Shown: one piece after another, positions 30,232 through 47,850 of the stretch
How the letters are laid out: each line of letters begins with the position of its first letter
How positions within the stretch are numbered: position 1 is the first letter of the stretch
NCBI GenBank assembly: GCA_963804955.1
Contig: CAWDSQ010000030.1
Location: 96,001 to 160,000 of the forward strand
Direction: 5' to 3'
From: an uncultured delta proteobacterium
GTDB taxonomy: Bacteria > Desulfobacterota > WTBG01 > CAIYCZ01 > CAIRTM01
Length of the DNA: 64,000 bases
Translations under genes and position numbers: made by a program
The notes under the pieces: model-generated
What the model was told of the DNA's origin: nothing
Seen by the model: only the letters and a program-made list of their open reading frames with translations
Databases searched by the model: none

Positions 30232-30978
30232 ATGCTGAAAGTACTGCGTGCCTCTTTGCAGCAGGGGCATCAAACGACTGCCTATCCCGAAATCGAGCCG
30301 GTTCTTCCGGACCGGTTCCGGGGCCTTCCCGTGCTCGACAGGTCTCGCTGCCCTGCGGACTGCAGATTGTGTAGAGATGCCTGCCCGACTGATGCGCTCT
30401 GCGAAGGCCTGAAAATTGATCTCGGCCGCTGCCTGTTTTGCGGCACCTGCAGCCGGGCCTGCCCGGCGGGGGCAATCAGCTTTTCGCAGGACTATCGCCT
30501 GAGCGTTCGAAAACGCGAAGACCTGGTTCTGGACAAAAATGCGTTGAAGCTGGCCGGGGCGCTGGATAAAAAAAGCAAAGCCCTGTTCGGCCGTTCCTTA
30601 AAGCTGCGGCAGGTAAGCGCGGGGGGATGTAATGCCTGCGAAGCGGATACGAATGTTTTGAATACCGTCGGCTGGGACCTGGGCAGGTTCGGCATACAGT
30701 TTGTTGCCTCGCCCCGTCATGCAGACGGTTTGCTTGTTACCGGGCCTGTTTCAGGCAATATGTTTTCAGCGCTTAAAAAAACCTATGATGCTGCCTCCTG
30801 GCCCAAGCTGGTGATCGCCGTCGGGGCCTGCGCCCTTTCCGGCGGCATGTATCGGGACCATCCGGAAGTCAAAAACGGCGCTGATCAGGTTCTGCCGGTT
30901 GATTTATATGTGCCCGGCTGCCCGCCACATCCCCTGACCATTCTTGACGGCCTTCTGCGGCTCCTGGGGAAAATTTAA
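30232..30978 (+). CDS. Ferredoxin-fused HycG/NuoB-like small subunit
   Basis: C..DC..C...CP and CLFCGTC...CP motifs; GGCNACE, ASPRHAD, GACA and GCPP. Confidence 0.9.
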   Translation: MLKVLRASLQQGHQTTAYPEIEPVLPDRFRGLPVLDRSRCPADCRLCRDACPTDALCEGLKIDLGRCLFCGTCSRACPAGAISFSQDYRLSVRKREDLVLDKNALKLAGALDKKSKALFGRSLKLRQVSAGGCNACEADTNVLNTVGWDLGRFGIQFVASPRHADGLLVTGPVSGNMFSALKKTYDAASWPKLVIAVGACALSGGMYRDHPEVKNGADQVLPVDLYVPGCPPHPLTILDGLLRLLGKI

Positions 30979-31019
30979 TTCAAACCCTGCTTGTGAGCCT
31001 TCACATTTGATTTTGTAGG

Positions 31020-31181
31020 CCCCCTCACCCCAACCCTCTCCCATCAGGAGGCTGTCATCTCGACCGAAGGGAGAGATCTTTGTAATAAGTAAAATCAAGG
31101 GCTTAAGATTTCTCACCGCCTGCGGCGGATTCGAAATGACATTAATAAATCAATTGCGTCACAGCCGCTGATGGGAGGGGA
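31020..31181. repeat. Nested REP-like element
   Basis: Outer CCCTCTCCCATCAG / CTGATGGGAGGG enclosing GCTGTCATCTCGACC...CGAAATGACA...CACAGCC; homologous to 47597-47781. Confidence 0.65.
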
Positions 31182-31473
31182 TTAAGTGGAGGGTGATCGC
31201 AACTGATAATTTCAAATGTGATGATCCACTAGTATTCGAGCCGGGTCCATACTCCGCGGCGGAAAGTAATCTCTGTCTACAAGCAGGGGGTCAAAATTTC
31301 GATCCCCTGCGAAAAACCAGGATTGCCACGGCGGACACCCTGCAATGATAGTCGCTGGAATTTTCGCGATTGCATCAGCTTTGAAGATATACAGATTATT
31401 TTACAGCCCCTCTGATTTTTTTTCGCCAATTCCTAACGATATGCCCTTCAAACATAAAAAACTAACACTTTTA

Positions 31474-31710
31474 TGTTTATAATGTGAACAGAGTCCAATA
31501 CTTCCAATATGTTGATTTTCCATGTTTTTGTCAAAACGCCTCTTGATTCGTTGTTTAGGTGTAAAAAATTTAAACAAATACGTCTTCCTATGATCGTGGA
31601 TTTGTTTATTTTATGAACATTTTATTGATAAAATTTAATATTTTTTTATATTTTTATTAAAATTTTGAGTAAAATTTTGACATAAATCCGGTCTTGGTAT
31701 AATTATTGTA
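31474..31710 (+). promoter_or_regulatory. Three TGT-N11-ACA enhancer-like boxes and a putative sigma-54 promoter
   Basis: Boxes at 31474-31490, 31560-31576 and 31603-31619. TTGGTATAATTATTGTA at 31694-31710 is GG-N10-GT, a non-canonical -12. Confidence 0.55.
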
Positions 31711-31801
31711 TATATATAGGTGAGAGCAGAGATGAATGAACTAATACGTTATAGTTTATTTATATTTAAAACCATTAAAGAGAGAGCAGAAGGAGGAAAC
31801 A

Positions 31802-33144
31802 ATGTCGGAAGTTGTTAAAAACAAAGGTTGGTCGGTGACATGCGGCGGGCTGGGCATTAATCTTGCCCTTGGAATACTCTATGCCTGGAGTATGTTTAAA
31901 GGCGCCATAGAGAAATCCATAAAAGCAGGCGGTGAAGGCGCGTTTACCTGGGATATGTCTCAGCTGAATGACCCCTATTCAGTATGCTGCCTTGTTTTTG
32001 CTTTTTCAATGATTCTTGCCGGAAAGTGTCAGGACAAATTCGGGCCAAGGATCACGGCTTTTCTGGGCGGGATTATGGTCGGCCTGGGGCTGCTGTGGAT
32101 ATCGCAGTCATCGAGCTATATCAGCTGGGTGCTTGGTTTTGGCGTTCTTGCCGGCACCGGCATCGGTTTCGGTTATTCTTCTGCAACGCCGCCGGCGCTC
32201 AAATGGTTCCCTTCGGCAAAAACAGGTCTGATCGCAGGGCTCGTTGTCGCAGGCTTTGGCCTGGCTCCTGTCTATATTGCACCCCTGTCTGAATATTTAA
32301 TAAATGGATTTGGTATCAGCAAGGCGATGCTCGTCTATGCTGTTTCTTTTATTGTTATTGTGTGCGGACTTTCAACCTTTCTGGTGAATCCTCCGGCAGG
32401 CTATGTTCCGGGCGGTGCTGCTGCACAGAAGAAGAAAGCCGCGGCTGCCAATGATGTGCCTCCTTCCAAAGTTATGAAAAGCCTTGATTTCTGGATGCTG
32501 TGGGCAATTTATTTCATCGGCGCAGGCGCCGGATTGATGGTTATCGGCAGCGTCGCGGGCATGGCCAAGAAGAGCATGGGCTCAGCGGCTTTTGTTGCTG
32601 TGGCGATTATGGCTATCGGCAATGCGGGCGGCCGCGTTCTGGCCGGCATGGCATCCGACAAGTTCGGCCGCAATGCCACGCTTGCCGGCGTTCTGATTTT
32701 TCAGGCGCTCTTAATGATTGCTGCAATCCCCCTGGTCAGCTCACAGGAAACCAGCGCTCTGCTGATCGTGCTGCTTGCCACGTTTATCGGCTTTAATTAT
32801 GGCGCAAACCTGTCCCTGTTCCCGTCCTTCGCCAAGGACCGCTGGGGCCTTAAATCCTTCGGCGTCAACTACGGCATATTGTTTACCGCCTGGGGCGTCG
32901 GCGGCTTTGTCATGAGCCGGGTTCAGCAGACCCTGTACGCAACAACGGGCAGCTATACCTCGTCGCTGCTTATCGCAGCCACCATGCTCACCGCAGGTAT
33001 GGTGCTTGCGCTTATGCTGAAAGCGCCCGAAGACCGCAGCAGCTCCTCAGGTCTGCGCCCGAAGGCGCTGTGTTTCAGCCCGGCCTTGGATACACCATGG
33101 CTGACGGCGGTGAAAAGGTTAAAAAAGAAGAAGAGAAAAAGTAA
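31802..33144 (+). CDS. OFA (oxalate/formate antiporter)-family MFS transporter; the probable true stop at 33144 needs a frameshift near 33030-33050
   Basis: LGILYAWS, QDKFGPR, KWFPSAKTGLIAG, GRVLAGMASDKFGR and NYGILFTAWG. The 600-aa ORF fusion with the next gene is an indel artefact; the shifted frame ends ...LGYTMADGGEKVKKEEEKK*. Confidence 0.85.
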
Positions 33145-33187
33145 GGTTCGGAGCAGAGGTCACGGTAGCGAAATGCGGAGCGGCGGC

Positions 33188-33959
33188 ATGAAGAAAAAAA
33201 TCTGTCATATGATTCCTGAAGAGGAAAAACAGTGCGTCTGGATGACCAGCGGGCTCATCTCCTACAAGCTCTGCACCCGTGATTATCGCTGCGAAGAGTG
33301 TATTTTCGATCAGGTTATACGCAACGAGGCTGCAGTTGACGCCGTCGCCGGCCACGGCGACGGGCTGTCTGCTGCAGCCTCATTATTCAACTGCCGATTC
33401 CCTGCAGGAACATGCCGCTCTTTTCTATCACAGCGGCCACTGCTGGGCCAAGGTCGAGGATGCCGACCAGGTGCGCATCGGCATAGACGGCATCCTTGCC
33501 CAGATGGTCTCACCGGTCAGGACGGTGGTTCTTCCCCAGATTGGCGACGCCGTGGTGCAGGGTCAAAGCTTTGCCCATATTATTCAGGAAAAGCATATCG
33601 TTGAGCTGGTCTCTCCCCTGACCGGAACGATCCTGTCCGTCAACCAGGGCCTGAAAGCAGCACCTCATACCCTTGCCGCCGAGCCCTGGGGCAGGGGATG
33701 GCTCGTGACGATCAGGCCCGACAATCTGGAGCATGATTTGAAGGCGCTCATGTTCGGCAGAAAAGCCATGGAGTGGTATGAGAAAAAAGAGCATGAGTTT
33801 GCCACGGCGCGGGTTGGCATGCTCAGCCGGCATGAGCCGGAGCTCGGGCCCACTCTGCAGGACGGGGGGGAATTGCTCGCGAGCCTTGCCGATATGCTCA
33901 GCCCCGAGCAGTACGAGCGGATTATGGATGTTCTTTTCCGGCCTGAAGATGCTGCGTGA
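33188..33959 (+). CDS. GcvH (glycine cleavage H)-like protein with N-terminal Cys-rich domain (frameshift near 33390)
   Basis: N-terminal CVWMTSGLISYKLCTRDYRCEECIFD; GcvH-like HCWAKVE...VRIGIDG...SPLTGTILSVN...PWGRGWL. Confidence 0.78.
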
Positions 33960-34479
33960 CCCGCAGCTGCTCCCTGCAGCGGCCGCACATATCCACTGAT
34001 TTCTGATCAATATCCTCCACATATGTCGAATTGACCATAACGCAGCCCGGCTGCCTGCAGTGCAGCAGGCCGAAGGTATGCCCGAGCTCGTGAATCGACT
34101 CCTTCACCAGCCGCTCGGTCAGCACAGTCTGGTTTTCGGGCAGGCCGTAAAATTTGCTGTTCAGCCGGTGCAGGGAGACGGCCGCCGCAATGCCGTCGAG
34201 CTGCGCTTCGCCGAACACAAAGGTGAGAATCGGTATGAACAGATCGACATCGGCAACAGCCAGAACCCGGCTGGCGCCGGGCGGCGGAGCCGCGATGATT
34301 TGCAGCAGTATTTTTGAGGAGTTGTACTGCCGGCGGTTGGGGTCGAAGATGCCTGCAAGGTCAAAGGGCAAATCGACGCAGCGCGTGCGGCAGCCGAAGG
34401 CTGTGTGAATGCCCGCCTCAAGCGGTTTCAGCCAGAAGCGGGAGCCTGTCTGGATGGGAGCTATATAAATACAGGACAT
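33922..34479 (-). CDS. Archaemetzincin (M54) Zn protease
   Basis: RRQYNS, DLFIPILTFVFGEA and HELGHTFGLLHC..PGCVM...DQK...C..C. Confidence 0.9.
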   Translation of the reverse strand: MSCIYIAPIQTGSRFWLKPLEAGIHTAFGCRTRCVDLPFDLAGIFDPNRRQYNSSKILLQIIAAPPPGASRVLAVADVDLFIPILTFVFGEAQLDGIAAAVSLHRLNSKFYGLPENQTVLTERLVKESIHELGHTFGLLHCRQPGCVMVNSTYVEDIDQKSVDMCGRCREQLRVTQHLQAGKEHP

Positions 34480-34501
34480 GCGCAGCAGGCCCGCCCACCG
34501 A

Positions 34502-35848
34502 TCATTTTTTCAGGTTGTATTTTTGTATCTTGTTGTACAGGGTCAGGCGGCTGATTTTTAAAATGCCTGCCGCCTGAGCAATATTGCCGCCGGTGCGGTC
34601 GAGTATTTTTTGTATATGGGTTTTTTCAATGTCCTCCATCGAGTCCTCATCGGTTGACCGCGCAGGCCCCAGTAAAAAAGGGAATGACAGGTCGGCCGGC
34701 TGAATCAGCGTGCCTTTGGCGCCGACCATGGCGCGCTCGATAACATTGCGCAGCTCGCGCACATTGCCCGGCCACTCATAGTGCGAGAGCATCTCCAGGG
34801 TTTCCGGGGTCAAATCCGTAACATTTTTATTCATGGACTCTGCGTATTTTTTGACAAAATACCGCGCCAGCAGGGGGATGTCGGCTTTTCTTTCGCGCAG
34901 CGGCGGCAGCACGATGGCAAAAACATTGAGCCGGTAATAGAGGTCCTCGCGGAAGGTGCCTTCGCGCACGGCGTTTTCCAGGTCTTTGTTGGTTGCGCAA
35001 ATGATGCGAAAATCCACATTCAGCAGCTTGTCGCCCCCGAGGCGCATGAACTGCCTTGTTTCTATGACGCGCAGCAGGTCCATCTGCATCTTCATGCCGA
35101 TATTGCCTATCTCATCAAGAAAAACGGTCCCCTTGTCAGCCATTTCCAGCTTGCCCCGGCGGCGGTACAGCGCGCCGGTAAAGGAGCCTTTCTCGTGGCC
35201 GAACAGCTCGCTCTCCAGCAGCCCTTCGGTGTAGGCGCCGCAGTTGATGGTGATGATGGGGAAATAGCGGCGGTTGCTGTTGCTGTGGATCGCCCGGGCG
35301 ATGAGCTCCTTGCCCGTTCCGCTGTCGCCCCGGATCATGACGGTGGAGTCTGTTTTGGCGACCGTTGCGACTTTATCCATGACCTTTTTCAGGGCCGGGC
35401 TGGAGCCCACTATTTCATCGTGGTAGGAGATTTCCTCGATCTGCCGCCGCAGCTGCATGTTTTCCGACAAAAGCCTGCGCTGCTCAACGGCATTCCTGAT
35501 CAGATGCCCCATTTCATCGGGGTCGACGGGCTTGACGATATAGTCGAAAGCGCCCTCCTTGAGCGCCTGAATGCTCGTCTCGACGGAGGCGAAGGCCGTA
35601 ATCATGATGGTGATGATGTTTTTGTCGATCTGCTTGATTCTTCGCTGCAGCTCCACGCCGTCGATGCCCGGCATTTTAATGTCCAGCAGCACGATGTCCC
35701 AGGCGCTGTCCTGGAGCTTCTGCAGAGCCGCGTTGGCGTCTTCGGCGGTATCGACCCGGTAGCCGTCGAACTTAAACCACTTGCTCAGCGCGTCGCGCAC
35801 GGACGTTTCATCATCAACAACCAGTATGCCAATATCTGAGGGATTCAT
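34502..35848 (-). CDS. Sigma-54-dependent NtrC-family response regulator
   Basis: REC domain (VVDDE, LLDIKMP); GDSGTGKE, ESELFGHEKGSFTGA, FREDLYYRL, WPGNVREL; Fis-type HTH. Confidence 0.95.
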   Translation of the reverse strand: MNPSDIGILVVDDETSVRDALSKWFKFDGYRVDTAEDANAALQKLQDSAWDIVLLDIKMPGIDGVELQRRIKQIDKNIITIMITAFASVETSIQALKEGAFDYIVKPVDPDEMGHLIRNAVEQRRLLSENMQLRRQIEEISYHDEIVGSSPALKKVMDKVATVAKTDSTVMIRGDSGTGKELIARAIHSNSNRRYFPIITINCGAYTEGLLESELFGHEKGSFTGALYRRRGKLEMADKGTVFLDEIGNIGMKMQMDLLRVIETRQFMRLGGDKLLNVDFRIICATNKDLENAVREGTFREDLYYRLNVFAIVLPPLRERKADIPLLARYFVKKYAESMNKNVTDLTPETLEMLSHYEWPGNVRELRNVIERAMVGAKGTLIQPADLSFPFLLGPARSTDEDSMEDIEKTHIQKILDRTGGNIAQAAGILKISRLTLYNKIQKYNLKK

Positions 35849-35864
35849 GCGTTACAACTCCTGT

Positions 35865-37321
35865 CTAATGTTTTTCCATATACTGCTGGTTCTGGACCCG
35901 CGGCAGCTTGATCGTGAATTCAGTGCCCCTGCCCATGCTGGACTCGACGCTGATGGTTCCGCCGTGGCGCTGCACGATGCCGTAGACGGCAGAGAGGCCC
36001 AGCCCCAGGCTTTTGTTTGATTCCTTGGTGGAGAAAAAAGGATCGAATATATGGGGCAGAACATCCGCAGGGATGCCCGTGCCGAAATCGATGAGCTTGA
36101 TTTTTACGGCTGTTTTGTCCCGGTAATCGGTACGGATAATTATTTTGTTGTTCGGCGCGAGGCTTCGATGGCGTTGACGATCATGGACACAAGTATCTGC
36201 TGAATCGCTCCCGTATCGCACTGAATGAGATCGTCGCCCGTATCGAGCTCTGCAGCCAGCTCAAGGCTCTTCATTCTGGCGCTGTGGTCGATTACTTTTA
36301 TGCTCACGTCGATGATTTCATTGAGGTGCACCTCTTTGACCTCGCCCATGGTGCGCTTGGCGAACAGCAGCAGGTTTTTGACGATATCGCCGCACCGCTT
36401 GGCCTCATTGGCTATGAGCGTGAGGTTTTCCCGTGTTTCCGCAACCGTTTCGGGCTGCAGGGGCTCCTGCCCGAGGTATTTGGAGGAAAGCTTGGCATAG
36501 GAAAGAATGCCCGACAGGGGGTTGTTGATTTCATGGGCCACCATCGCCGACAGCCGTCCCGAGGGAGGCCATTTTTTCCGTCAGCGTCAGATTTTCCCTT
36601 GTTTTTTTGAGCTCTTCCTCGGCTGCGCGCTGCTGTTTGTGCGTTTTATAGCTGATGCTGATAATGCTGCTCAGCAGGAGCGATATGATCAGGAGAATGA
36701 CTACGGAGAATTTGATGATCTGGCTGGTTATCTCTGCAATTTCGGCTTTTATGTCTTCTATGTAGATGCCGGTGCCGATGATCCAGCCCCAGGGCATAGA
36801 ACCCTTTCACATAGGAAATTTTCGGCAGGATGAGATTCTGGTTATCATAGGATTGCCATTTGTACTGGATGAAGCCCGATCCCTGCGCCTTGACGACATT
36901 GACGAATTCGACGAAAACGCGTTTTCCGTCAGGGTCGGTGTAGTCTGAAAGATCTTTGCCGTTTAGGTCATTGCGGTAGGGATGAATGACCATGCGGGGG
37001 TGCATGTCATTGATCCAGAAATAGTCCTTGACTGCCTGGCCGTAATGGAGGTTTTTAATCTGGTCGATGGCCTGGCGCTGCGCTTCGGCGCGCGTGAGCA
37101 GGCCCTGGCGCTCGTCATTTTCAAGCTTCGCCAGAATATTCCATGCCGAGGTGGTGAGCTCCTGTATCATTTCCCGCTTGCGCTCCAGGCTGGTTTTTTC
37201 GATGGTCGGGATGATAAAGGCGAAAATAACGCGAAATAAACAGAATGAAGGCCAGTATCGTGGGAACGACAATGCGCCACAAAAACGACTTCCAGGGAAA
37301 TGAGATATGCGGAGATATCAT
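35865..37321 (-). CDS. Membrane sensor histidine kinase with single Cache (sCache_2-like) domain; several frameshifts
   Basis: Fragments give TM - YFWINDMHPRMVIHP...PWGWIIGTGIY - TM - EKMASLG...AHEINNPL - NAIEA - DFGTGI, FDPFFSTK, GLGLS. Confidence 0.85.
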
Positions 37322-37488
37322 AGCTGTGCACCACTCGCTTGATTTATTCAGCACATAGTCGGTATGTGCGCCGATTGCCGGCAGCCTGTGGGCCTTCACA
37401 TTTGAAATTAACTGTTTTAGTAACCCTTTTCTTAATGCCACTATATGAAAATCAGGGGCATACGTTAATTGAAAAAGGAAAATCCCAG

Positions 37489-37552
37489 CGTCATTCCGGC
37501 TTGTCCGGAATCCTTCCGCTGCGGTGGAAAAGATCCGGACAGCCGGAATGAC
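37489..37552. repeat. REP-like hairpin
   Basis: GTCATTCCGGCTTGTCCGGAATC...GATCCGGACAGCCGGAATGAC inverted repeat. Confidence 0.65.
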
Positions 37553-37581
37553 AGTCTGATGTTACGTACGGGGATTGTATC

Positions 37582-38366
37582 TCATACAAAATCAAATGTG
37601 AAGGCCCTGTCAGACAGCTCCCGCGGTCCATCCGGCCGAATGATTTTTAATTTCGCCAGCAGCTTTTCTATAAACGGCGTTTTTTCCCACTCAAGCCTGT
37701 GCTTGATAATGGTCAGCTGGAAATCCGCGTCCAGAAGCCCGAAGCCTTTCCATGCACCCTCCAGGCCATAGTAGGCCGTATGGCTGTCGCTGCAGGAAAA
37801 CCATTTGTGATGATGGCCGAACAGCCACAGCTTCGGCTTGAAATGCGCAGCCAGCTCCTGGCTGCGGGGAAAACCGGTGGCGCCGAAATGGTCCAGGCCG
37901 GGCGTGCTGGGCACGCCGATACCGGTCGGGCAGTCATGGGTCAAAATAATATCGACCTGCTGCCCGGGCAAAGGCCAGGCAGGCATTAATCTGCTGATCG
38001 GTTATGATCGCCCCCTGTTCGGTCAGCATGGAGTCCATATAGGCAGCTCCCCCAAGGGCCAGAAAACGGTAGCCCTCTATGCAGTGAACTGTGCCGCGGG
38101 GCAGATAGGTGAAAAAGGCCTGATACTTTTTGGTCAGCTTCTCAAGAGCATTGAAATCCTCATGGTTGCCGTCGATACAATACAGGGGCCGCATAAAGCG
38201 CTGCCCTTTTTTTATGAAAAAGTCGTGCAAATGGGATTTGTAGAGGCCGAAGTCCCCCAGGTGAATGATGCAGGAGATCTTCATGGCCGAGCACGTTTTC
38301 GGCATAGGCAAGCTGCTGGTTGATGGTGCCGTAGTAGCAATGGGTATCGCAGGTTACCAGAATCAC
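37582..38366 (-). CDS. Calcineurin-like metallophosphoesterase (frameshifted)
   Basis: DTH, HLGDFG, DGNHED, LTHDCP and FGHHH motifs across three fragments. The GTG start overlaps the TGA of the upstream gene. Confidence 0.85.
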
Positions 38367-41307
38367 TGGACACCTCCGATCTGGCCGGTGAAATCATAGC
38401 TCAGCTTTGCCTGGAAATTTTTTATCTGGGAGAAAATTTCCTTGAGCAGCTTTTGCTCGATAGAGGTCAGGTTTTTCGGGGTCACATAATTGTCGGGCTT
38501 TGCGTTTCCCGGCCGCTATTGCCGCAGCCTGAACCTGCAGCCGTATCTGCATGAGATAGCTGTATGCCTGCACCATTTCCTGGTAATTCAGCAGATGTCA
38601 GCACGCGCGCGCTCATGCAGCCCCAGCAGCCGCTCCAGCGTGTTGGTGGCGGGAACGCCGTGCTTGAGGGCGTAGATGCGGGCATAGTCGACAATGGGCA
38701 TCATGGCGCTTTTAATGTCAAAGGCCTTGCGGTGCTCGTCCACGGATTCGACGACAAATTTTCCGAACAGCCCGATCGGCGGGCTGAGCGGCAGAACATT
38801 GCGGGCCAGCAGCTGAAAAAATCTCGGGTTGTCGGCAACCATGGCAGCAAGAAAATCCCGCAGCTCTCCCGCGAGGCCGTCGTCTCCGAAGGCGCAGCGA
38901 AAGTCGAAAAATATTTTTGTTTTCAGGAGGTCTTCAGCCGAAGCCGCATGAATCCACTGGCTGAAATACCGCTTCCATACGGTAAGGGGCTGGCACCACT
39001 GGGGATTTTGCGCCATGTTGTTGCCCTCGCAGTAGTGGTACCCGGCCTGGTTCAGCCATCTGCAGACCATGGCGCCCAGTTTGAGGAAGTATGCCTGTAC
39101 AACCGATGACTCCAGGTCGGCGGCGGTGTCCTCAAAAATAATCGCATTGTCCTGGTCGGTCATGAGGGTCTGTTCCTGCCGGCCCTCGCTGCCGAATACC
39201 AGAAAAGCAAACCGCACCGGGGGCGGGCCCAGTTCCCGGATGGCAAATTCCAGGAGCTTTTGCAGAATCGTGTCGATCACGATGGTGGTCAGATGGTTTA
39301 TGCTTTGAGGCTTTGCGCCGCTCTTGATGAGGGTTGTTATGAGATAGGGGAGAACCTCATTATGCCTGATCACTTCGTCGGGTGATGTGTCATTGCGTAT
39401 CTCCCAGAGCAGCACCGCTGGCGAATACTTCTGAATGGCGGCTATATCCTTGCTGTTGATTAAGCCGATGATGGCGCCATGGGTATCGGTGACGAAAAGA
39501 TGGGCAATGCCCTTATTCTGCATAAGCCACCAGGACTCAAATACCGATGCATTGCCCGGCAGTGAAATAACGGGAGACGACATGATCTCGGCTACCGGGC
39601 GGTCCTCATGCTCGTGCAGGAGCATCACGGCCTTTCTCAGATCATGGTCGGTGATGACGCCGCAGTCCCTTCCCTCTGCATCGCGCACCAGCAGGACCTC
39701 GTTGTGCTGCTGCTCCATCATGCGCACCGCTTCCCCGATCGGCATGCCGGGATGGCATAGTGCCGGCTGGCGACAGGGCAGGCCGCCAAGGGGCTGATTA
39801 TAAAACAGCAGCACCGACTGCGTTTCGGAAAGGAGTTTTTCCCTTTCCTCCTCTCTCATATGCAGCTCAGTAATATCTTCCATGATGCCGTCACAGTATC
39901 GCGGCGACGCCGTCTTCGTCTTCGACCATGACGCCCCAGATGGAAGCGGTAAATACGGAGCCGTCTTTTTTCTTGAGCCTGACGATCTCCCTTTTCAGGT
40001 CTTCGGCAGATGCTTTCGGCTCAAGGGTTTTACGGTCGTCGGGGTTGCAGTACAGGCTTATGACCGGGGTGAGCGAGCAGCTCTTCCTTGCTTGCGTAGC
40101 CCAGCAGTTTCACCAGCGCTGGATTTGCTTCGATAAATTTCGGGTTCGGGCCGATGGTCCGTCGGAAAATACCCACGTTGAGATTGTTGGCAAGTGTTCT
40201 GAATTTTTCTTCGCTGCGGCCCAGGGCATCCTCTGCCTGCTTGCGTTTGGTAATATCGGTTACAACGGCCATGAAGCCGGTTTTGCCGCCGATTTCTATC
40301 GGGGATGTCGACAGAATAACATCTTTGGTTCCGCCTGATTTTGTTTTGAGCTGTGCTTCAAATGTTGCGGGAACCGATTTGCCGGCAAGCAGCTCATCCA
40401 GGAACCGGCTGCTCTGCTGGTCGTTTGATTCAGCCAGAACCGTGCGCACCGGCATGCCTGCGAAACTCGCTTTTATCGTATTCCAGCATGGCCGCTATTG
40501 TCTGATTGGCGTGCATGTAGGTTCCTTCAAGGGCCATGAGCATGCCTTCGCCTGCCGATTCGACAAGGGTGCGGTATTTTTCTTCGGAATCGCGCAGGGC
40601 CTGCTCCGCCAGCTGCTGCTGCTTGAGCGTGGCGTAGCTTTGCCTGATGATGCTCGCCAGCAGCAGCGAGATTATCAGCAGGATGAAAAAGGAAATTTCA
40701 AAAAGGTTGCGTGTTAGTTCGCTGATTTCAGCCTGGACGTCGTCGATGTAAATGCCGGTTCCGATGACCCAGCCCCAGGGCTGGAAACCTTTGACATAGG
40801 AGAGTTTCGGCAGAATGCGGTCCTCTTTATCCTTCCACTGCCACATGTACTGCATATAGCCGGCGCCCTGCCGCTTCACCAGGTCGACAAAATCCACAAA
40901 AACCCGCTTGCCTTCAGGGTCGGTGTAATCGGAAAGGTCCTTGCCATTGAGGTCGGTCCGGTACGGGTGGATAACCATGCGCGGGTGCATGTCGTTTATC
41001 CAGAAATAATCCTTCATCTCCTGGCCGTAGTGCAGGTTCTTAATCTGCTCGATGGCCTGGCGTTTGGGCCTGCGGCCGCGTGAGCAGGCCCTGCTGCTTC
41101 ATCATGCTCGAGCTTCGCGAGAATGTTCCAGGCCGAGTTGGTCAGCTCGCGGATCATTTCCCGCTTCCGGTCCATGCTGCTTTTTTCAATGGCGGGGATA
41201 ATAATGGAAAAGAAGGCGATGACAAACAGCGCTATGGTGACAGCCGTCGGGAAAACGAACCGTGCCGCAAATGACTTCCACTGGGTTGATATGTGCGGGG
41301 CAAACAT
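38363..41307 (-). CDS. Membrane-anchored Cache-PAS-PAS-CBS-DUF294 putative nucleotidyltransferase (~980 aa, several frameshifts)
   Basis: Collinear fragments 41014-41307, 40430-41017, 40030-40455, 38588-39883 and a C-terminal tail. Order: TM, sCache_2, TM, two PAS domains (SEEKYRTLVE, DITKRKQAE, SEEKFRTL), CBS pair, GSEGRQEQTLMTDQDN, FFDFR, FDIK...PIVDYAR, TNTLERL. Confidence 0.78.
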
Positions 41308-41319
41308 CGCGTAAACCTC

Positions 41320-41499
41320 TAACCGGCTGTTGGAAAACGCCCATCTGCTGCGTTGCGCTCATCGTGCTTCACTGCGGCGTACAAAAAGTACGCCTCATTT
41401 CGCATGATTGCCTGCAAGCAGGTGTCACAGACAGCGCGCGCCTTGCATCTGAGCATTTTTGAACAGCCTTCTCCTGGTGACTTTTTCAACACCCTGCTA
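41320..41499. mobile_element. MITE-like element, copy 1
   Basis: Termini GGCTGTTGGAAAA / TTTTTCAACACCCTGCTA; homologous to 62552-62844. Confidence 0.7.
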
Positions 41500-41620
41500 A
41501 TCCTCTGCTGAGCCCATACTGCTGCTGCCGTGTGCAAGACAGAATACACGGGGCACCGCATTCCTGTCAAGAAGCACAGGCAAACAATTCGTCCCCGGCT
41601 GACGCGGCCGGCTCGTTAAG

Positions 41621-41659
41621 AAAACGGGGGAGAACACCCCATTTGCTGTTCTCCCCCGT
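41621..41659 (-). terminator. Terminator after actP
   Basis: ACGGGGGAGAACA / TGTTCTCCCCCGT hairpin followed by Ts on the minus strand. Confidence 0.6.
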
Positions 41660-41692
41660 CACCGTATGCATCAGCGCAGCCTTCCTGTCCGT

Positions 41693-43597
41693 TCAGGCGG
41701 CGGCTTTTTTCTGCGAAAACAGCGATACGACAATAAGCGTTATATAGCCCAGGGGTATTGAAATGATGCCCGGGTTGTCAAGCGGTATCGGCGCTGAGGC
41801 TTTGGGCAGGCCGTACAGATCAACATAGGTGCTGGGCGACAGCAGAATGATCCCGAGCGCCGTGACCATGCCGACCACGATGGATGCCGCGATGCCCTTG
41901 GAGGTCGTCTTTTTCCAGAACAGCAGCATGGTGATGGCCGGCAGGTTTGCCGAGGCGGCAACCGCAAAGGCAAGGCCGACCAGAAATGAAACGTTCATGC
42001 CTTTGCATAAAATGCCCAGAATAATGGCGATGACGCCAACGACAACAGCGGCGATTTTGCCTGCCTTCACCTGCCCCTTGTCCGTCATCTCTATGCCAAG
42101 AAATCCAGTCATCAGATCATGGGCCACCGCGCCGGAGGCGGCAACGATGAGCCTGAAACCGTTCCCAGAACCGTTGCAAAAGCAATGGCGCAGATGCAGG
42201 AGAAGATGGTGATGCCGAAGTATTTCGCCAGCAGCGGCGCCGACATATTGCTGCTTTCCATGTCAAGAACACCCGTCATCATGGCGCCAAGGCCCATGAA
42301 CAGGGTCAGAACATAGAAAAAGCCGATTGAGCCGATGGCCACGATGGTTGACTTGCGGGCATCCTTGGGGCTCGAGACCGTGTAGTAGCGGATGAGAATA
42401 TGGGGCAGGGCCGAGGTGCCGAAGAACAGGGCGATCATGAGCGAAATGAAATTCAGGCGCGACATGAAGTCAGCTCCCTCGTCGACCTTGAACTTCAGGC
42501 CCGGCCGCATGATGTCTGGAGCCTGCCGTGGGGTTCTGCCGCCAGATGGTGACCTTGTCGCCGCCGTCCTTGACAACTGCTTTGGCAAAGCGGACCACTT
42601 CGGACCGCTCGATGGTGGCCAAAAATTCAAAGGGCCCGAGAGCGCCGGTTTTCTGGACCTCTTTGCCGTCGACGATGATTTTGCTGGCATGGCCGACCTG
42701 GTAGAACTTCCTGGCATCCTTGGGCTCGCCGTTATACAGGGTTTTGCCGTCGGCGGTTTTTGTCATGGAAAGGGCTTCCTTGAGTACCGGTCCGCCGTCT
42801 TTGGCGCTCACATGCCACCAGGTGGCAATGCCGTTCTGTGTGAGTTTTGCAAAGAGGGCTTTGCCGTCCTTGAAGGTGCCGGCGACGGTATATGCCGGGT
42901 CTGCAACCGCGGTAACGGCGTCATTTGCCACAGTGGCGTTTATGGTTTTAAACTTGTGATAGTTTGCATCCGGGGGGGTGTTAATGCCGTTGACGAAAAT
43001 ACTGATGGTGAGAATGGTTGAAAAAACAATCAGCAGGCCGCCCTTGATGAACTGCACATAGGTGGTTGATGTCATGCCCGCGGTTGCAACTATAAAGATA
43101 ACGATGGCGCCGACAAGGATAACCCCCATGTAGTGGGGAAGCCCCAGCAGCGGGGTTACCAGGTCGCCTGCGCCGACCATCTGGGGAATCAGGTAGCATA
43201 CGGAAACAACCAGCGTGCTGATGGCTGCCGTGAGCATGATTCCCCTGGACCCGAACTTGTAGTTGAGCGCATCGGTGAAGGTGTATTTGCCGAAGCGCTT
43301 AAGCGGTTCGGCCACAACAAACAGGGCAACGACCCAGCCGGCAAGGTAGCCGATTGAATACAGAAAGCCGTCATAGCCGTCAAAGGCGATCATGCCGCAG
43401 ATGCCGAGAAATGACGCGGCTGAAAGATAGTCGCCGGCAAAGGCTATGCCGTTAACGCCCCAGTGAATATTGCCGCCGGCGGCATAATAGCCCTTGGAGG
43501 ACTGTGTTTTTTTTGCAAAGTATGAAGAAAGCCCGAGCACGCCGAGTACAAAAGCTATAAATATGCCAATTGCAAATGGTGATGCTGCATAAATCAT
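41693..43597 (-). CDS. actP: Cation/acetate symporter ActP (SSS family), frameshifted
   Basis: NGIAFAGDYLSAASFLG, AEPLKRFGKYT, YLIPQMVGAG, GTSALPHILIRYYTV, AFATVLGTV and AFAVAASANLP; downstream of DUF485. Confidence 0.88.
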
Positions 43598-43612
43598 TGT
43601 TCGTCTCCCCTT

Positions 43613-43882
43613 TTATTTGTTTAATTCATATTCTTTTTTGGTGCACATGTGGTTGTAGATAACACCCATTATGATGGCTAAAAGAATCAGGCCGAAACCG
43701 TACACGCAGGCAAGATTCAGCCCCGCCATGACGATAATGCCCATGGTTTTGGGGCTCATTACATTGATGACGATAAAGCCGGCATAAACCAGCACATAAA
43801 ATATAAATAAATATATCCCGAGCCGCGCCTTATACTCGGAAGCCCTGTCCTCACCCCATTGTGTTGCTGGTCCATGTCCCAT
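43613..43882 (-). CDS. DUF485 (YjcH-like) small membrane partner of ActP
   Basis: 89 aa with two TM segments, immediately upstream of actP, which is the canonical arrangement. Confidence 0.8.
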   Translation of the reverse strand: MGHGPATQWGEDRASEYKARLGIYLFIFYVLVYAGFIVINVMSPKTMGIIVMAGLNLACVYGFGLILLAIIMGVIYNHMCTKKEYELNK

Positions 43883-43907
43883 TTTTTTTCTCCTTGTTAA
43901 GTGAATA

Positions 43908-44021
43908 GGTAAAGAAAATGAACAAACTGACTGTCTCTATATTTCACAATTTAAACACTGTCAAGTGGAAAAATGAAAATACGTAAAAAAAATATACATA
44001 CACATGTTCTCTTTGTGAACA
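43908..44021 (-). promoter_or_regulatory. Sigma-70 promoter of DUF485-actP overlapped and flanked by TGT-N11-ACA-like boxes
   Basis: Minus-strand TTGACA (43964-43959)-N17-TATAGA (43941-43936). Boxes at 43908-43924, 43941-43957, 43982-43998 and 44005-44021 (the last is a perfect match). Confidence 0.55.
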
Positions 44022-44303
44022 AAATTCTAAAAAAATATTTGCCGGACTGCCGTTACTTTTAGTATGCCGTAGGGGGATATGCTGTTTAAGGGGCACCGTT
44101 TATGCCGAAAGACGGTTTTTAAATAGTATTTAAGTTATTTAAGATTTTTAGTTGATGTGTTTCAATGGCGGGAGCGGATAAGAAGGCTGGAGAAACTAAT
44201 CGGTTTTTGTGTATACTTATTGATCAAATCTTGGATTATTGTGTTCACAATGTATGCATTGATGTTTTAGGGACATTTTTTACCTTAGGCCTCGTTTTTC
44301 TGT

Positions 44304-44620
44304 ACATCTCGAGCCCTTCAGCACTTCGCTCAGGGCAGGCTTCCGGGAGCAGATCTTTGTTTTTGGAGTAGATTGATGCGCGCGGCGAACCTTCAGACTC
44401 AGTTGCTCTCACCTCCCCTTAATCCCTCCCATCAAAGGCTGTGTCATAATTAAAATAAATGTCATTCTGAGGAGCCGCAGGCGACGAAGAATCTCGTTGC
44501 TTGATGATTATATGAGAAAGGGCGAATGGCCATTCGCCCCTACGCAACGCCAGAGATCCTTCGTTTCACTCAGGATGACCGCACTATTTAATTGCTACAC
44601 AGTCTCTTGCGGGGGGAGGT
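44304..44620. repeat. Cluster of nested REP-like elements
   Basis: CTTCGCTCAGGGCAGGCT module; TGTCATTCTGAG...CTCAGGATGAC pair enclosing a GTAG-type REP (GGGCGAATGGCCATTCGCCCCTAC). Confidence 0.6.
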
Positions 44621-44718
44621 GGGGCTCCAGGCGGCTTGCGGTGTATCGGGTGTTGCCAAAACCCTTGCCCGGCTGCGCTGCGCGTGGTAGTATACCTGTT
44701 TTACCGGAGCAGCTATAC

Positions 44719-47596: not shown

Positions 47597-47781
47597 GGCT
47601 GTGTTGCAAGTAACTTTGCTGTCATCTCGACCCCTTCGGCTTCGCTCAGGGCAGGCTCCGGGAGAGATCTTTGTAGCAAGTAAAATCAAGGGCCTAAGAT
47701 TGATGCGCGGTGGCGCAACCTGCGGACTCACCGCCTGCGGCGGACCCGAAATGACATTAATAAATCAATTGCGACACAGCC
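47597..47781. repeat. Nested REP-like element, homologous to 31050-31167
   Basis: GGCTGTGTTGCAA / TTGCGACACAGCC ends; shared core GAGAGATCTTTGTA..AAGTAAAATCAAGGGC.TAAGATT. Confidence 0.7.
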
Positions 47782-47850
47782 TCTATGCGGGTGGTTGTTG
47801 ACTTTCAATTTTCATCGAAGGCGACCTCTTTCTTCACTTGAAAAATTTCA

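Follow-up and report, generated by a model that had tools for sequence, protein, structure and literature searches.

Here we describe a conserved Desulfobacterota locus within a 64-kb window (the whole stretch of DNA analysed), and we put at roughly 60% the probability that it senses and imports C2-C3 monocarboxylates, with two modules, A and B, reading the same outside signal through paralogous sCache_2 domains. In silico support comes from gene content, conservation, sensor paralogy and the sensor pocket, catalytic motifs, folds, and cis-elements; the signals and cargo are proposed to include acetate, propionate, pyruvate, and lactate. The cluster is real and conserved, yet is made of two separable modules. 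Module A consists of DUF485-ActP and an sCache_2-PAS-PAS-CBS-DUF294 nucleotidyltransferase, followed by a metallophosphoesterase; module B consists of a paralogous sCache_2 kinase, a sigma-54 regulator, and an archaemetzincin, and is convergent with the MFS and Cys-rich GcvH-like genes. The coupling of the two modules is new, as is a sigma-54-to-sigma-70 promoter switch that follows the GAFTGA or GAFPGA motif of the regulator.

Module B would act transcriptionally, with the Cache kinase phosphorylating the NtrC-type regulator, which would then bind TGTT-N9-AACA palindromes and turn on the sigma-54 promoter of an SfMCT-type lactate/H+ transporter and a putative zinc- or metal-binding GcvH-fold protein. 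The DUF485-actP operon is probably under the same regulator, with a palindrome 131 nt upstream, beside a sigma-70-type promoter. Module A would act post-transcriptionally, its Cache receptor relaying the signal to a GlnE/DrrA-like nucleotidyltransferase by way of two PAS domains and paired CBS domains, the latter possibly taking in an adenylate or energy signal.

Organization of the locus

Domains were assigned by Pfam scans of the window's own open reading frame pieces, and the gene order and orientation given in an earlier note on this DNA are as found here. The host is a sediment bacterium.

Table 1. Genes and putative regulatory elements of the locus (window coordinates)
Feature	Position	Strand	Remarks
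Distal palindrome TGTTTATAATGTGAACA	31474..31490	+	Putative operator/enhancer of MFS gene
Proximal palindrome TGTTTATTTTATGAACA	31603..31619	+	~90 nt upstream of -24/-12 element
Sigma-54-type -24/-12 element TGGTAT-N5-TTGTA	31695..31710	+	107 nt before MFS start codon
MFS_1 transporter, SfMCT-type L-lactate/monocarboxylate	31802..33140	+	End approximate; frame continues past frameshift
Cys-rich GcvH-fold protein, C-x12-C-x5-C-x2-C	33188..33959	+	Frameshift near 33280-33450; Pfam GCV_H
Archaemetzincin (Peptidase_M54)	33922..34479	-	Pfam and NCBIfam archmetzin
NtrC-type sigma-54 response regulator, REC-Sigma54_activat-HTH_8	34502..35848	-	Pfam
Membrane histidine kinase, periplasmic sCache_2-HisKA-HATPase_c	35865..37321	-	Frameshifted; Pfam
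Metallophos protein, partner of DUF294 protein	37582..38311	-	Frameshifted; Pfam
Membrane receptor sCache_2-PAS-PAS-CBSx2-DUF294-DUF294_C nucleotidyltransferase	~38375-41307	-	Frameshifted; Pfam
SSF, ActP/MctC-like sodium:solute symporter	41693..43597	-	~150-aa insert; frameshifted; Pfam
DUF485 (YjcH-like) small membrane subunit	43613..43882	-	Pfam
Sigma-70-like promoter TTGACA-N17-TATAGA, in front of DUF485-actP	43936..43964	-	Kept in orthologous upstream regions
Palindrome TGTTCTCTTTGTGAACA	44005..44021	+	131 nt upstream of DUF485 start codon

Paired sensors

Identity between the two Cache domains is 74% across the 82 readable residues of the window and 75% across 239 residues in a genome of the same order (G018), confirming the sensor duplication reported earlier. 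In a tree, the sensors of the kinases group as a single clade (SH-aLRT 96) that falls within those of the DUF294 proteins. The nearest solved structures are Adeh_3718 (4K08) and PscD (5G4Y/Z), with E values of 1e-35 to 1e-39, and all seven ligand contacts of PscD (Y90, W92, H103, F126, Y143, W145, and K156) are kept in both window sensors. Conservation of these contacts from the acetate/propionate/pyruvate sensors PscD and Adeh_3718 is consistent, at the sequence level, with the sensing of an external carboxylate. The predicted ligand binding thus resembles that of the chemoreceptor sensors PscD, McpP, and Adeh_3718, but their output is a chemoreceptor signalling domain, whereas here it is a histidine kinase or a nucleotidyltransferase.

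DUF294 nucleotidyltransferase and metallophosphoesterase

The DUF294 GS...DxD motif and third Asp are invariant in 31 sequences, and the structure of the domain (pLDDT 85.9; all folds discussed here are predicted models) best matches GlnE (1V4A and 3K7D) and DrrA (6YX5), such that the invariant catalytic residues and the protein-AMPylase-like fold point to a nucleotidylation branch, as had been suggested. DUF294 would most likely modify a protein with AMP or UMP, and the DUF485-ActP permease system is the foremost candidate substrate; that the transporters are controlled post-translationally, as also claimed earlier, is something that we only infer. The Dbr1-like metallophosphoesterase encoded directly after the DUF294 gene would take the mark off, the two proteins forming a writer/eraser pair; its motifs are all invariant in 32 sequences, and its model (pLDDT 89.5) is nearest to Dbr1, followed by MPPED2, GpdQ, and Rv0805.

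It is possible, though unlikely, that DUF294 instead produces a diffusible nucleotide signal, or acts on an RNA or oligonucleotide by extending or capping it, and that the metallophosphoesterase degrades this product. The pol-beta fold includes second-messenger synthases, and the nearest relatives of the modelled metallophosphoesterase are a 2'-5' RNA phosphodiesterase (Dbr1) and cyclic-nucleotide or diester hydrolases (MPPED2, GpdQ, and Rv0805); the RNase T-like exonuclease partner in Pseudomonas, as far as the available part of its description goes, would also fit a nucleic acid-like product. However, the modelled DUF294 and C-terminal domain match the protein adenylyltransferases GlnE and DrrA and not cGAS/DncV-like enzymes, and Pfam groups DUF294_C with the GlnD/GlnE substrate-binding domains.

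Protein nucleotidylation would place the pair beside the GlnE, GlnD, and DrrA/SidD switches, with which it shares a pol-beta core, a helical substrate-binding domain, and a writer-plus-eraser logic, at only 12-16% sequence identity. Known erasers are an HD domain (GlnD), a second nucleotidyltransferase domain (GlnE), and a PP2C-like enzyme (SidD), whereas the predicted eraser here is a separate metallophosphoesterase; the input is a transmembrane receptor, and there is no PII, glutamine synthetase, or Rab context.

An analogue occurs in Pseudomonas, where PA3233/PA3232 presumably carry the same architecture as PP_0354/PP_0353. In the available part of the published work on P. alloputida KT2440, the acetate system MxtR/ErdR (CrbS/R) has PP_0354 (a cNMP-CBS-nucleotidyltransferase) and PP_0353 (an exonuclease) as its strongest targets, mutants in these genes show poorer growth on propionate or pyruvate, and the authors likewise propose protein modification; PA3232-PA3235 of P. 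aeruginosa are reported to be co-induced on propionate. As in the window, a phosphodiester hydrolase accompanies a CBS-CBS-DUF294-type nucleotidyltransferase, and genetic evidence connects the Pseudomonas pair with yjcH-actP and the use of short-chain carboxylates. On the same partial account, PP_0354 is cytoplasmic with a cNMP-binding input, whereas the input here is a periplasmic sCache_2 and two PAS domains; PP_0354 is partnered by an RNase T-like exonuclease rather than a Dbr1-like metallophosphoesterase, and MxtR/ErdR is a different type of two-component system from the one here. The earlier view that the combination is undescribed thus holds only in part: the coupling of the modules is new, but the cytoplasmic analogue PP_0354/PP_0353 has been studied genetically.

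Transporters and promoter elements

The MFS protein was previously labelled an OFA-type oxalate/formate antiporter, an identity that we reject for that of an SfMCT-type L-lactate transporter. It scores 403 bits against the NCBIfam SfMCT equivalog (cut-off, 320), and its best PDB match is SfMCT (6G9X; E value, 1e-47), the L-lactate/H+ transporter of Syntrophobacter fumaroxidans, whose carboxylate ligands Y119 and R280 it keeps; transport is predicted. Unlike SfMCT, the window gene is followed by a Cys-rich GcvH-fold gene. The role of DUF485 is taken from Price et al. (preprint 10.1101/072470).

TGTT-N9-AACA has three matches in the window (at 31474, 31603, and 44005), all upstream of MFS or DUF485, compared with a mean of 0.71 in shuffled sequences, 1 of 100 of which reaches three; the stricter TGTTNA-N5-TNAACA has two matches versus 0.02 expected. 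The two transporter operons therefore do share a promoter box, as the earlier note had it, and the common palindrome suggests transcriptional control of both transporters. Orthologous palindromes lie 190-325 nt upstream of MFS in related loci, and the DUF485 palindrome lies 130-139 nt upstream in five of the loci; the exact palindrome is found upstream of MFS in only 13 of the 21 MFS-bearing loci, which counts against the proposal.

TGG[CT]A[CT]-N5-TTG precedes MFS in 15 of 22 loci, 90-128 nt away (165 nt in one), and in the window and close relatives the -12 part reads TTGT or TTGA instead of TTGC, a departure that counts against the proposal; in the accessible part of the source, a TTGT variant is reported for the Desulfovibrio vulgaris por promoter (PMC6456213). 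At the GAFTGA position the window's regulator reads GSFTGA. GAFTGA or GSFTGA regulators occur in exactly those lineages with a sigma-54-type MFS element, and GAFPGA regulators in lineages whose MFS promoters look sigma-70-like; because the motif tracks promoter type, the regulator is tied to the MFS promoter. The DUF485-actP promoter looks sigma-70-type, so a GAFTGA-type activator cannot drive it in the usual way, and this too speaks against the proposal.

Close known systems are LurSR of D. vulgaris and, grouped with it, CrbS/R and MctSR-MctP. LurSR, to the extent that its description was available, is likewise a two-component system that uses a sigma-54 regulator to switch on lactate permease genes, and its promoter has a -12 TTGT. 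Its LurR operator, GTCCGCTTTTTCAGAC, differs from TGTT-N9-AACA, as do its target genes, and that part of the description includes no archaemetzincin, GcvH-like gene, or DUF294 branch.

Distribution of the two modules

Co-occurrence in other genomes, on which the earlier note had staked its proposal, is found at several taxonomic levels. The full set is syntenic in two further genomes of the genus, two of the family, one of the order, and one of another family, and four Leptospirales loci hold it in a different gene order and look horizontally acquired. Fused Cache-DUF294 genes were found at 54 loci, 52 with room downstream, and the metallophosphoesterase lies ≤200 nt downstream in 44 of the 52; the other eight weigh against the proposal, although one of them has it upstream. 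DUF485-ActP is present at 32 of the 54 loci, and the 22 without ActP within the fetched flank count against the proposal. The M54 gene adjoins the orthologous regulator in 22 of 24 loci. In a survey of 42 genomes of the class, which are related and so not independent samples, DUF294 is present in 15, all 15 with the metallophosphoesterase, and orthologous CysGcvH is present in 13 of these 15 versus none of the 27 DUF294-negative genomes. Two genomes have module A and no orthologous CysGcvH.

Module A spans many phyla; Riflebacteria, Planctomycetota, Fibrobacterota, and other groups have it without B, and eight loci have module B without A within 10 kb. Since many genomes have them apart, neither module needs the other, a further point against the proposal. 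This separation, including modules that are solitary or split between contigs of one genome (three cases) and the many phyla with A and no B, would also be expected of two unrelated systems, ActP/DUF294/metallophosphoesterase and a two-component system with its MFS target, sitting side by side in a carboxylate-utilization neighbourhood with no cross-talk. We regard this as quite improbable, since the kinase sensor arose once, as a copy of the DUF294 sensor, and has the same ligand pocket, the palindrome is common to the actP and MFS upstream regions even 12 kb apart, the presence of CysGcvH tracks that of DUF294 in the class survey, two phyla that differ in gene order both have the modules side by side, and a cNMP-type DUF294 lies directly upstream of MFS-CysGcvH in two loci (L050 and L055). 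Modules A and B thus appear to be coupled by four links, namely, sensor paralogy, the identical pocket, the common palindrome, and co-occurrence (13/15 genomes), but the single circuit proposed in the earlier note is not an indivisible unit.

Archaemetzincin and GcvH-like protein

The archaemetzincin scores 157 bits against NCBIfam archmetzin (cut-off, 145), and its HELGH...HC-x4-C...C-x2-C motif is intact in the window and present in all 21 sequences, with the Met-turn Met replaced by Leu in 10 of the 21. The published extended motif, in the part of the source available, is HExxHxxGxxHCx4CxMx17CxxC (PMC3427221), and the window protein has it in common with AmzA and AMZ-tk. Like carG of Myxococcus, the M54 gene follows a transcription factor gene to which it is coupled; however, CarG has HQxxH and no protease activity, whereas the window family keeps HELGH (21/21), and the partner of CarG is CarD rather than a sigma-54 regulator. 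The archaemetzincin may be a regulator accessory, either a processing protease or a CarG-like cofactor. At its 3' end, the M54 gene runs 38 nt into the convergent GcvH-like gene.

The GcvH-like protein scores 71.7 bits against Pfam GCV_H; in NCBIfam it reaches none of the GcvH cut-offs. It aligns with solved GcvH, including the lipoyl-lysine column. It shares the GCV_H fold domain with glycine cleavage H protein but, in a 14-orthologue alignment, carries an additional N-terminal Cys4 module, invariant HCW and H-x5-H motifs, and a C-terminal extension. Of the 14 family members, 10 have K in the lipoyl-lysine column, 3 have R, and 1 has H, and because the lysine is not conserved, the carrier role once suggested is unsupported, at least as an obligate lipoyl carrier.

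Reading frame breaks

One-base indels number ~24 per 10 kb relative to the same-genus genome G003 and break seven of the nine genes. Orthologues in G018 and in the genome of another family (G030) are single open frames (the G018 kinase is intact, at 483 aa), DUF294-receptor orthologues are 976-1021 aa long, and rpoB is likewise split in the same genome; the intact orthologues and split rpoB identify the frameshifts as sequencing or assembly errors, as already suspected. Decay of the cluster into pseudogenes through real frameshifts would accord with the indel density and the disrupted genes but is extremely improbable, given that essential rpoB is split too, that the orthologues are intact, that a collinear strain-variant contig has the same genes with other breaks and a 941-aa open frame, and that per-piece protein identity to G003 is 84-100% at 93% DNA identity, which indicates purifying selection.

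Organization of the locus

The locus is best read as a two-branch monocarboxylate sensing and uptake system, with one branch in which a sigma-54 two-component system controls an SfMCT-type lactate transporter, and a second consisting of a receptor-nucleotidyltransferase paired with a phosphodiesterase, for which both the chemistry and the target are putative. The actP gene is probably also under the control of the sigma-54 branch. The two convergent arms described in an earlier note on this DNA are borne out by an ORF listing and Pfam scans of the window, and the earlier observation as a whole is confirmed, with corrections to two of the gene assignments and to the idea of a single circuit, as described below. 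The 3' end of the gene for the Cys-rich GcvH-like protein (CysGcvH) and the M54 gene share a 38-nt overlap.

Features of the locus, in window coordinates
Feature	Position	Strand	Location	Basis
DUF485	43613-43882	minus		Pfam
ActP-like SSF symporter	41693-43597	minus		Pfam
Membrane protein with sCache_2, two PAS, two CBS, DUF294, and DUF294_C (receptor)	~38375-41307	minus		Pfam
Calcineurin-like metallophosphoesterase (MPE)	37582-38311	minus		Pfam
sCache_2-HisKA-HATPase_c kinase	35865-37321	minus		Pfam
REC-Sigma54_activat-HTH_8 regulator	34502-35848	minus		Pfam
Peptidase M54 archaemetzincin	33922-34479	minus		Pfam
MFS transporter	31802-~33140	plus		Pfam
Cys-rich protein with GCV_H domain (CysGcvH)	33188-33959	plus		Pfam
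Sigma-54-type element TGGTAT-AATTA-TTGTA	31695		upstream of MFS	aligned upstream regions and regex
Sigma-70-like promoter TTGACA-N17-TATAGA	43964-43936	minus	before DUF485-actP	

Conservation and modularity

The genes of the locus co-occur in other genomes, as the neighborhood check proposed earlier would have it. In tblastn comparisons of the window pieces with 12 regions from relatives, the full set (Cache-DUF294, MPE, Cache kinase, regulator, M54, convergent CysGcvH and MFS, and DUF485-ActP) is present in two genomes of the same genus (G003 and G001), two of the same family (G012 and G005), one of the same order (G018), and one from another family of the class (G030). The position of DUF485-ActP varies, and it is upstream of DUF294 in some relatives and divergent from MFS in others. 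A species-level scan (one genome per species), using an alignment (A1) of nine intact receptors, identified 77 related loci, every one from a MAG, which were mapped with the intact G018 proteins as reference. These are distributed among the Thermodesulfobacteriota, Spirochaetota (Leptospirales), Riflebacteria/Ozemobacteraceae, Bacteroidota, Ignavibacteriota, Planctomycetota, Lentisphaerota, Fibrobacterota, and others.

The genes are conserved together, but rather than the one circuit proposed earlier the locus consists of two separable modules that are also found apart. Module A (the receptor and MPE, often with DUF485-ActP) occurs without module B (the kinase together with the regulator and M54, facing MFS and CysGcvH in convergent orientation) in most phyla other than Desulfobacterota, and module B occurs without module A within 10 kb in L052, L073, L075, L082, L084, L086, L094, and L096. 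The modules adjoin in Desulfobacterota and also, with another gene order, in four loci of Leptospirales (L042-L044 and L047), and are on separate contigs in G010, G015, and G016. The fused Cache-DUF294 gene is present in 54 loci, 52 of which have at least 800 nt of downstream sequence, and in 44 of these 52 MPE starts no more than 200 nt past the end of the receptor gene. Two of the other eight were examined in full; L093 has MPE immediately upstream, and L074 has none on either side. DUF485-ActP accompanies the fused gene in 32 of the 54 loci, and is within 1.5 kb in 27. An orthologous regulator (at least 60% identity) is present in 24 loci, with M54 adjoining in 22, MFS in 19, and CysGcvH in 16; the two lacking M54 are L027, where the regulator match reaches the contig end, and L048.

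Among 42 genomes of the class, which are related and not independent samples so that no statistical claim is attached to the counts, a DUF294 protein (E ≤ 1e-60) is present in 15, all 15 of which also have MPE (E ≤ 1e-30). One (G014) of the 27 DUF294-negative genomes has an MPE fragment, which carries a stop codon. Orthologous CysGcvH (E ≤ 1e-60) is found in 13 of the 15 DUF294-positive genomes, versus none of the 27 DUF294-negative genomes; six of these 27 have weaker matches (1e-32 to 1e-43), presumably to other GcvH-like families.

The two Cache sensors

The receptor and the kinase share a duplicated sensor, as the earlier note had it. The two Cache regions of G018, with both membrane helices counted, match over 239 residues at 75% identity, and those of the window have 74% identity over 82 comparable residues. 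The sCache_2 domain scores 97 to 101 bits in the window pieces and 142 to 145 bits in the G018 orthologues, and is flanked on both sides by hydrophobic segments, as read by eye from the sequence. The closest solved structures are the Adeh_3718 sensor (4K08) and PscD (5G4Y/5G4Z), with E values of 1e-35 to 1e-39. Brewster et al. describe glycolate, acetate, propionate, and pyruvate as PscD ligands, contacted by seven residues (Y90, W92, H103, F126, Y143, W145, and K156), and acetate as present in the Adeh_3718 crystal (PMC5062169). As seen from an HMMER alignment to 5G4Y and 4K08 and from the window sequences, neither the sensor of the kinase nor that of the DUF294 protein has lost any of the seven contact residues.

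The relationships of the sensors were explored in a quick IQ-TREE analysis of 81 Cache domains, with midpoint rooting only, drawn from stop-free tblastn matches with a reference coverage of 85% or more and classified according to the downstream domain. All 24 kinase sensors cluster together (SH-aLRT 96) within the DUF294 sensors of Desulfobacterota, and the Leptospirales sequences fall inside the Desulfobacterota in both sensor groups. The nesting in this midpoint-rooted tree suggests that the kinase sensor arose as a single copy of the receptor's sensor, and that the whole cluster was horizontally transferred into Leptospirales.

The receptor-nucleotidyltransferase and its metallophosphoesterase partner

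DUF294 nucleotidyltransferases, of the COG2905 type with PF03445 and PF10335, are commonly cytoplasmic with an N-terminal cNMP-binding domain, whereas the receptor in the window has a TM-sCache_2-TM-PAS-PAS arrangement in its place. The window protein scores 153.8 bits for DUF294, 76.8 bits for DUF294_C, which is cut by a frameshift, and 71.2 bits for the preceding CBS pair; in the G018 orthologue DUF294 and DUF294_C score 154 and 149 bits, respectively. The residues of the Pol-beta signature G[GS]-x9-13-DxD, here G228, S229, D240, and D242, together with a third acidic residue, D324, are invariant in 31 aligned CBS-DUF294 regions. An AlphaFold model of the CBS-DUF294 region (pLDDT 85.9) has as its top Foldseek matches 1V4A (E 3.9e-10), 3K7D, and 6YX5 (TM 0.45-0.68), followed only by CBS pairs. 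1V4A and 3K7D are the two halves of the glutamine synthetase adenylyltransferase GlnE, and 6YX5 is the Legionella AMPylase DrrA with Rab8a; all three transfer AMP to other proteins.

The MPE motifs DxH, GD, GNHE, H, and GHxH are all kept in 32 aligned sequences, in which D7, H9, G37, D38, G66, N67, H68, E69, H143, H184, and H186 are invariant. The Pfam Metallophos score is 56.3 bits in G018, and in the frameshifted piece from the window it equals the cut-off, at 21.5 bits. The best Foldseek match of the MPE model (pLDDT 89.5) is Dbr1 (E 1.4e-12, TMq 0.67, 21% identity), a lariat-debranching 2'-5' phosphodiesterase that is also the best, though weak (E 0.03), PDB match by sequence; Dbr1 is ~350 aa and MPE is ~250 aa. 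The next-best fold matches are MPPED2, GpdQ, and Rv0805, the last of which is a cyclic-nucleotide phosphodiesterase, and because these four are the nearest folds, MPE is predicted to be of the diesterase rather than the protein phosphatase type.

The receptor and MPE genes are tightly paired, often abutting, as would suit a writer and an eraser that add and remove a phosphodiester-linked mark, and would suit just as well a synthase and a hydrolase acting on a nucleotide product. The modeled similarity to GlnE and DrrA favors the writer and eraser.

The closest experimental knowledge to module A is of Pseudomonas alloputida PP_0354 and PP_0353, which a 2026 preprint (10.64898/2026.09.07.749794) reports as the genes that depend most on the acetate system MxtR/ErdR. 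In that account, PP_0354 has a cNMP-binding domain, two CBS domains, and a nucleotidyltransferase, and PP_0353 is an RNase T-like exonuclease; deletion of either gene weakens growth on propionate, deletion of PP_0353 weakens growth on pyruvate too, and the authors propose a protein modification akin to PII uridylylation. In Pseudomonas aeruginosa, PA3232-PA3235, including an ActP homologue, are co-induced on propionate (PMC9765439). The window receptor differs in having an outside carboxylate sensor where PP_0354 has a cytoplasmic cNMP input, and its partner is an MPE rather than an exonuclease. A cNMP-binding-CBS-DUF294 gene is also directly upstream of MFS-CysGcvH in L050 (5354-7804) and L055, so that the DUF294 family is again tied to these transporters. 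The L050 protein is 816 aa, with ~200 N-terminal residues outside the named domains. In both of these loci two metallo-beta-lactamase-fold genes lie just before the cNMP-DUF294 gene, and MPE is absent.

Transporters

The MFS transporter had been labeled 'OFA', which is wrong: it scores 403.2 bits against the SfMCT NCBIfam equivalog (cut-off 320), but falls below the cut-offs of the NCBIfam oxalate/formate antiporter (OxlT) models (141.7 versus 335 and 210.3 versus 374.85 bits). Its best PDB match is SfMCT 6G9X (E 1e-47), and Y119 and R280, the carboxylate ligands of SfMCT (PMC6573034), are both kept in the alignment to 6G9X, so that by sequence this is an SfMCT-type L-lactate transporter.

The SSF protein is ActP/MctC-like, with the G018 orthologue scoring 448 against the MctC cut-off of 670, and 409 against the ActP cut-off of 750. 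The symporter (window 42470-43597; G018 L014:15709-17610) has a ~150-residue insert between the SSF halves, which splits the MctC/ActP profile match and is lacking from the canonical ActP and MctC profiles. The DUF485 gene is directly upstream, and Price et al. propose in a preprint (10.1101/072470) that ActP-like permeases require DUF485 as a subunit.

Shared palindromes, promoters, and the regulator

The shared promoter boxes reported earlier are palindromes of the form TGTT-N9-AACA, present three times in the window (31474, 31603, and 44005) and forming the exact borders of the stretch first singled out. Shuffled sequences have a mean of 0.71 matches, with 1 of 100 shuffles reaching three, and a stricter form occurs twice in the window (0.02 expected) and only six times in the 4.26-Mb genome. 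There are 63 matches in the 77 related loci (1.26 Mb), 24 of them at most 450 nt ahead of the start of an MFS or DUF485 gene. An exact palindrome is upstream of MFS in 13 of 21 MFS-bearing loci, at 190 to 325 nt in several Desulfobacterota loci, and is 130 to 139 nt before DUF485 in L027, L028, L034, L035, and L070. In Leptospirales it lies between the divergent DUF485 and MFS genes, with an extra copy ~200 nt before the Cache kinase gene in L042-L044. The palindrome has no resemblance to the LurR operator of Desulfovibrio.

The strict sigma-54 consensus TGG[CT]A[CTG]-N5-[TC]TGC[ATC] has no match in the region, and a mismatch-scored scan was noisy, with a TGGYAY-N5-TTG element emerging only from aligned orthologous upstream regions. 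In 15 of 22 loci, including the window, the corresponding pattern TGG[CT]A[CT]-N5-TTG, which has 139 matches genome-wide on both strands, precedes the MFS start by 90 to 128 nt (165 nt in one case), and a -12 TTGT has been published for the sigma-54 promoter of the Desulfovibrio vulgaris por operon (PMC6456213). Palindromes ~90 and ~220 nt upstream of the window element are candidate regulator sites. The seven loci without the element are four from Leptospirales, two from Geobacteraceae/Desulfuromonadaceae, and the non-orthologous L095, and the six orthologous loci have TTGACA-type MFS promoters instead. In L042-L044, L047, L051, and L096, which have sigma-70-type-looking MFS promoters, the TTGACA overlaps or adjoins the palindrome.

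The regulator scores 106 bits for REC, 229.6 for Sigma54_activat, and 53.5 for HTH_8. Its loop predicted to contact sigma-54 reads GSFTGA in the window and in same-genus L034, GAFTGA in 13 relatives, and GAFPGA in nine (L042-L044, L047, L048, L051, L064, L084, and L096). GAFPGA regulators occur in lineages with TTGACA-type MFS promoters and GAFTGA regulators in the others, and this co-variation is the best in silico evidence that the regulator drives the MFS promoter. It also suggests that an enhancer-binding protein was rewired from sigma-54 to sigma-70 in one clade, for which the tracking of promoter type by the loop provides a natural experiment. In all close relatives the promoter of DUF485-actP has a sigma-70-type appearance, of a kind that a GAFTGA-type activator does not drive in its usual way.

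The archaemetzincin and CysGcvH

The window M54 protein scores 157.1 bits (archaemetzincin cut-off 145) and its motif HExxHxxGxxHCx4CxMx17CxxC is complete. HELGH and the four cysteines are present in 21 of 21 sequences, and the Met of the Met-turn is Leu in 10. The fixed place of M54 after the regulator gene recalls the carD-carG order of Myxococcus, where CarG is described as an archaemetzincin-like, non-proteolytic zinc protein acting as a DNA-free cofactor of a transcription factor (PMC8156234).

The 'carrier' role proposed for the GcvH-like protein is unsupported. CysGcvH is below all GcvH family cut-offs (72.3 versus 117, 63.2 versus 115.85, and 38.3 versus 150 bits), and among 14 sequences the position corresponding to the lipoyl-lysine of solved GcvH varies, with K in 10, R in 3, and H in 1; the window protein has K. 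C-x12-C-x5-C-x2-C, HCW, and H-x5-H motifs are invariant in these 14 sequences, and CysGcvH is therefore probably a metal-binding protein with a GcvH fold rather than a proven swinging-arm carrier. Only ~100 nt separates the matches to M54 and MFS in L073, so that CysGcvH is missing there; a CysGcvH match is absent from L094 and L052 too.

A proposed model for control of carboxylate import

A more specific proposal, with a probability of roughly three in ten, is that Cache-PAS-CBS-DUF294 proteins represent a third kind of transmembrane receptor, with ligand-driven protein AMPylation or UMPylation, a Dbr1-like eraser, a sensor copied onto a kinase, and an M54-regulator partnership. The receptor, when bound to an acetate- or lactate-type ligand from outside the cell, would AMPylate or UMPylate the DUF485-ActP permease or another uptake or activation protein, and the Dbr1-like phosphoesterase would take the mark off, giving fast on/off control of carboxylate import. 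In Desulfobacterota, the receptor sensor would have been copied onto a histidine kinase, such that the same ligand drives a slower, transcriptional sigma-54 branch, rewired to sigma-70 in some lineages, with the archaemetzincin partnering the regulator as CarG partners CarD. If true, the receptor would stand beside kinases and cyclases as a third kind of signaling.

Neither a description of the combined locus nor a functional study of DUF294 activity was found in the main texts of the literature searched. The new features of the window are that the two modules are coupled, that the sensor copy is of single origin, that an operator is shared, and that promoter type co-varies with the GAFTGA motif. 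Food webs in anaerobic settings have short-chain carboxylates as their main currency, and little is known of how sulfate reducers and syntrophs sense these acids and ration their uptake. DUF294, a very widespread and uncharacterized enzyme family, gains a predicted ligand and chemistry, a putative dedicated eraser, and a neighboring candidate target, and two orphan families, the bacterial archaemetzincins and the lipoate-less GcvH-fold proteins, gain a defined regulatory context.

Assembly quality and flanking features

Frameshifts cut seven of the nine genes of the window cluster, and a 10-kb arm compared with same-genus G003 is 93% identical with 30 indels, ~24 of them single-base. These frameshifts are attributed to assembly errors, since the G018 and G030 orthologues have intact single reading frames, rpoB of the same genome is in two frames (G000:C30:222099-226147, outside the window), the window protein pieces are 84 to 100% identical to G003, and the gene breaks differ in a second contig, C29. 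Errors of this one-base kind seem to extend through the whole genome assembly. An ABC-F ATPase gene at 44497-46356 looks frameshifted too.

C29 (35.4 kb in whole) carries another copy of DUF485-ActP-DUF294-MPE, which was rejected as a paralogue, as the contig is collinear with the window from 37388 to 64000 and beyond at 86 to 97% identity with many indels. It is probably a strain-variant duplicate, contributed by a second strain that was binned with the first, and makes gene copy numbers in the MAG look higher than they are.

Between actP and the receptor gene there is an 83-codon reading frame ('orf83', 41319-41570, minus strand) that matches no Pfam family, is conserved within the genus only (96 to 97% in G003, with a frameshift, and 47% in G001), and was set aside as intergenic; instead of a gene, the segment is probably a leader or promoter region under conservation. 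No Rfam family was found in 30500-45000 at E ≤ 0.1. A dispersed ~130-nt repeat (31101-31230, plus; 44399-44494, minus; 47727-47784) has copies on both flanks of the cluster in opposite orientation, but with 41 blastn matches across the genome these were rejected as mobile-element ends. The MPE-kinase spacer (37548-37609 region) is ~218 nt longer in the window than in G003, through insertions of 49 and 169 nt.
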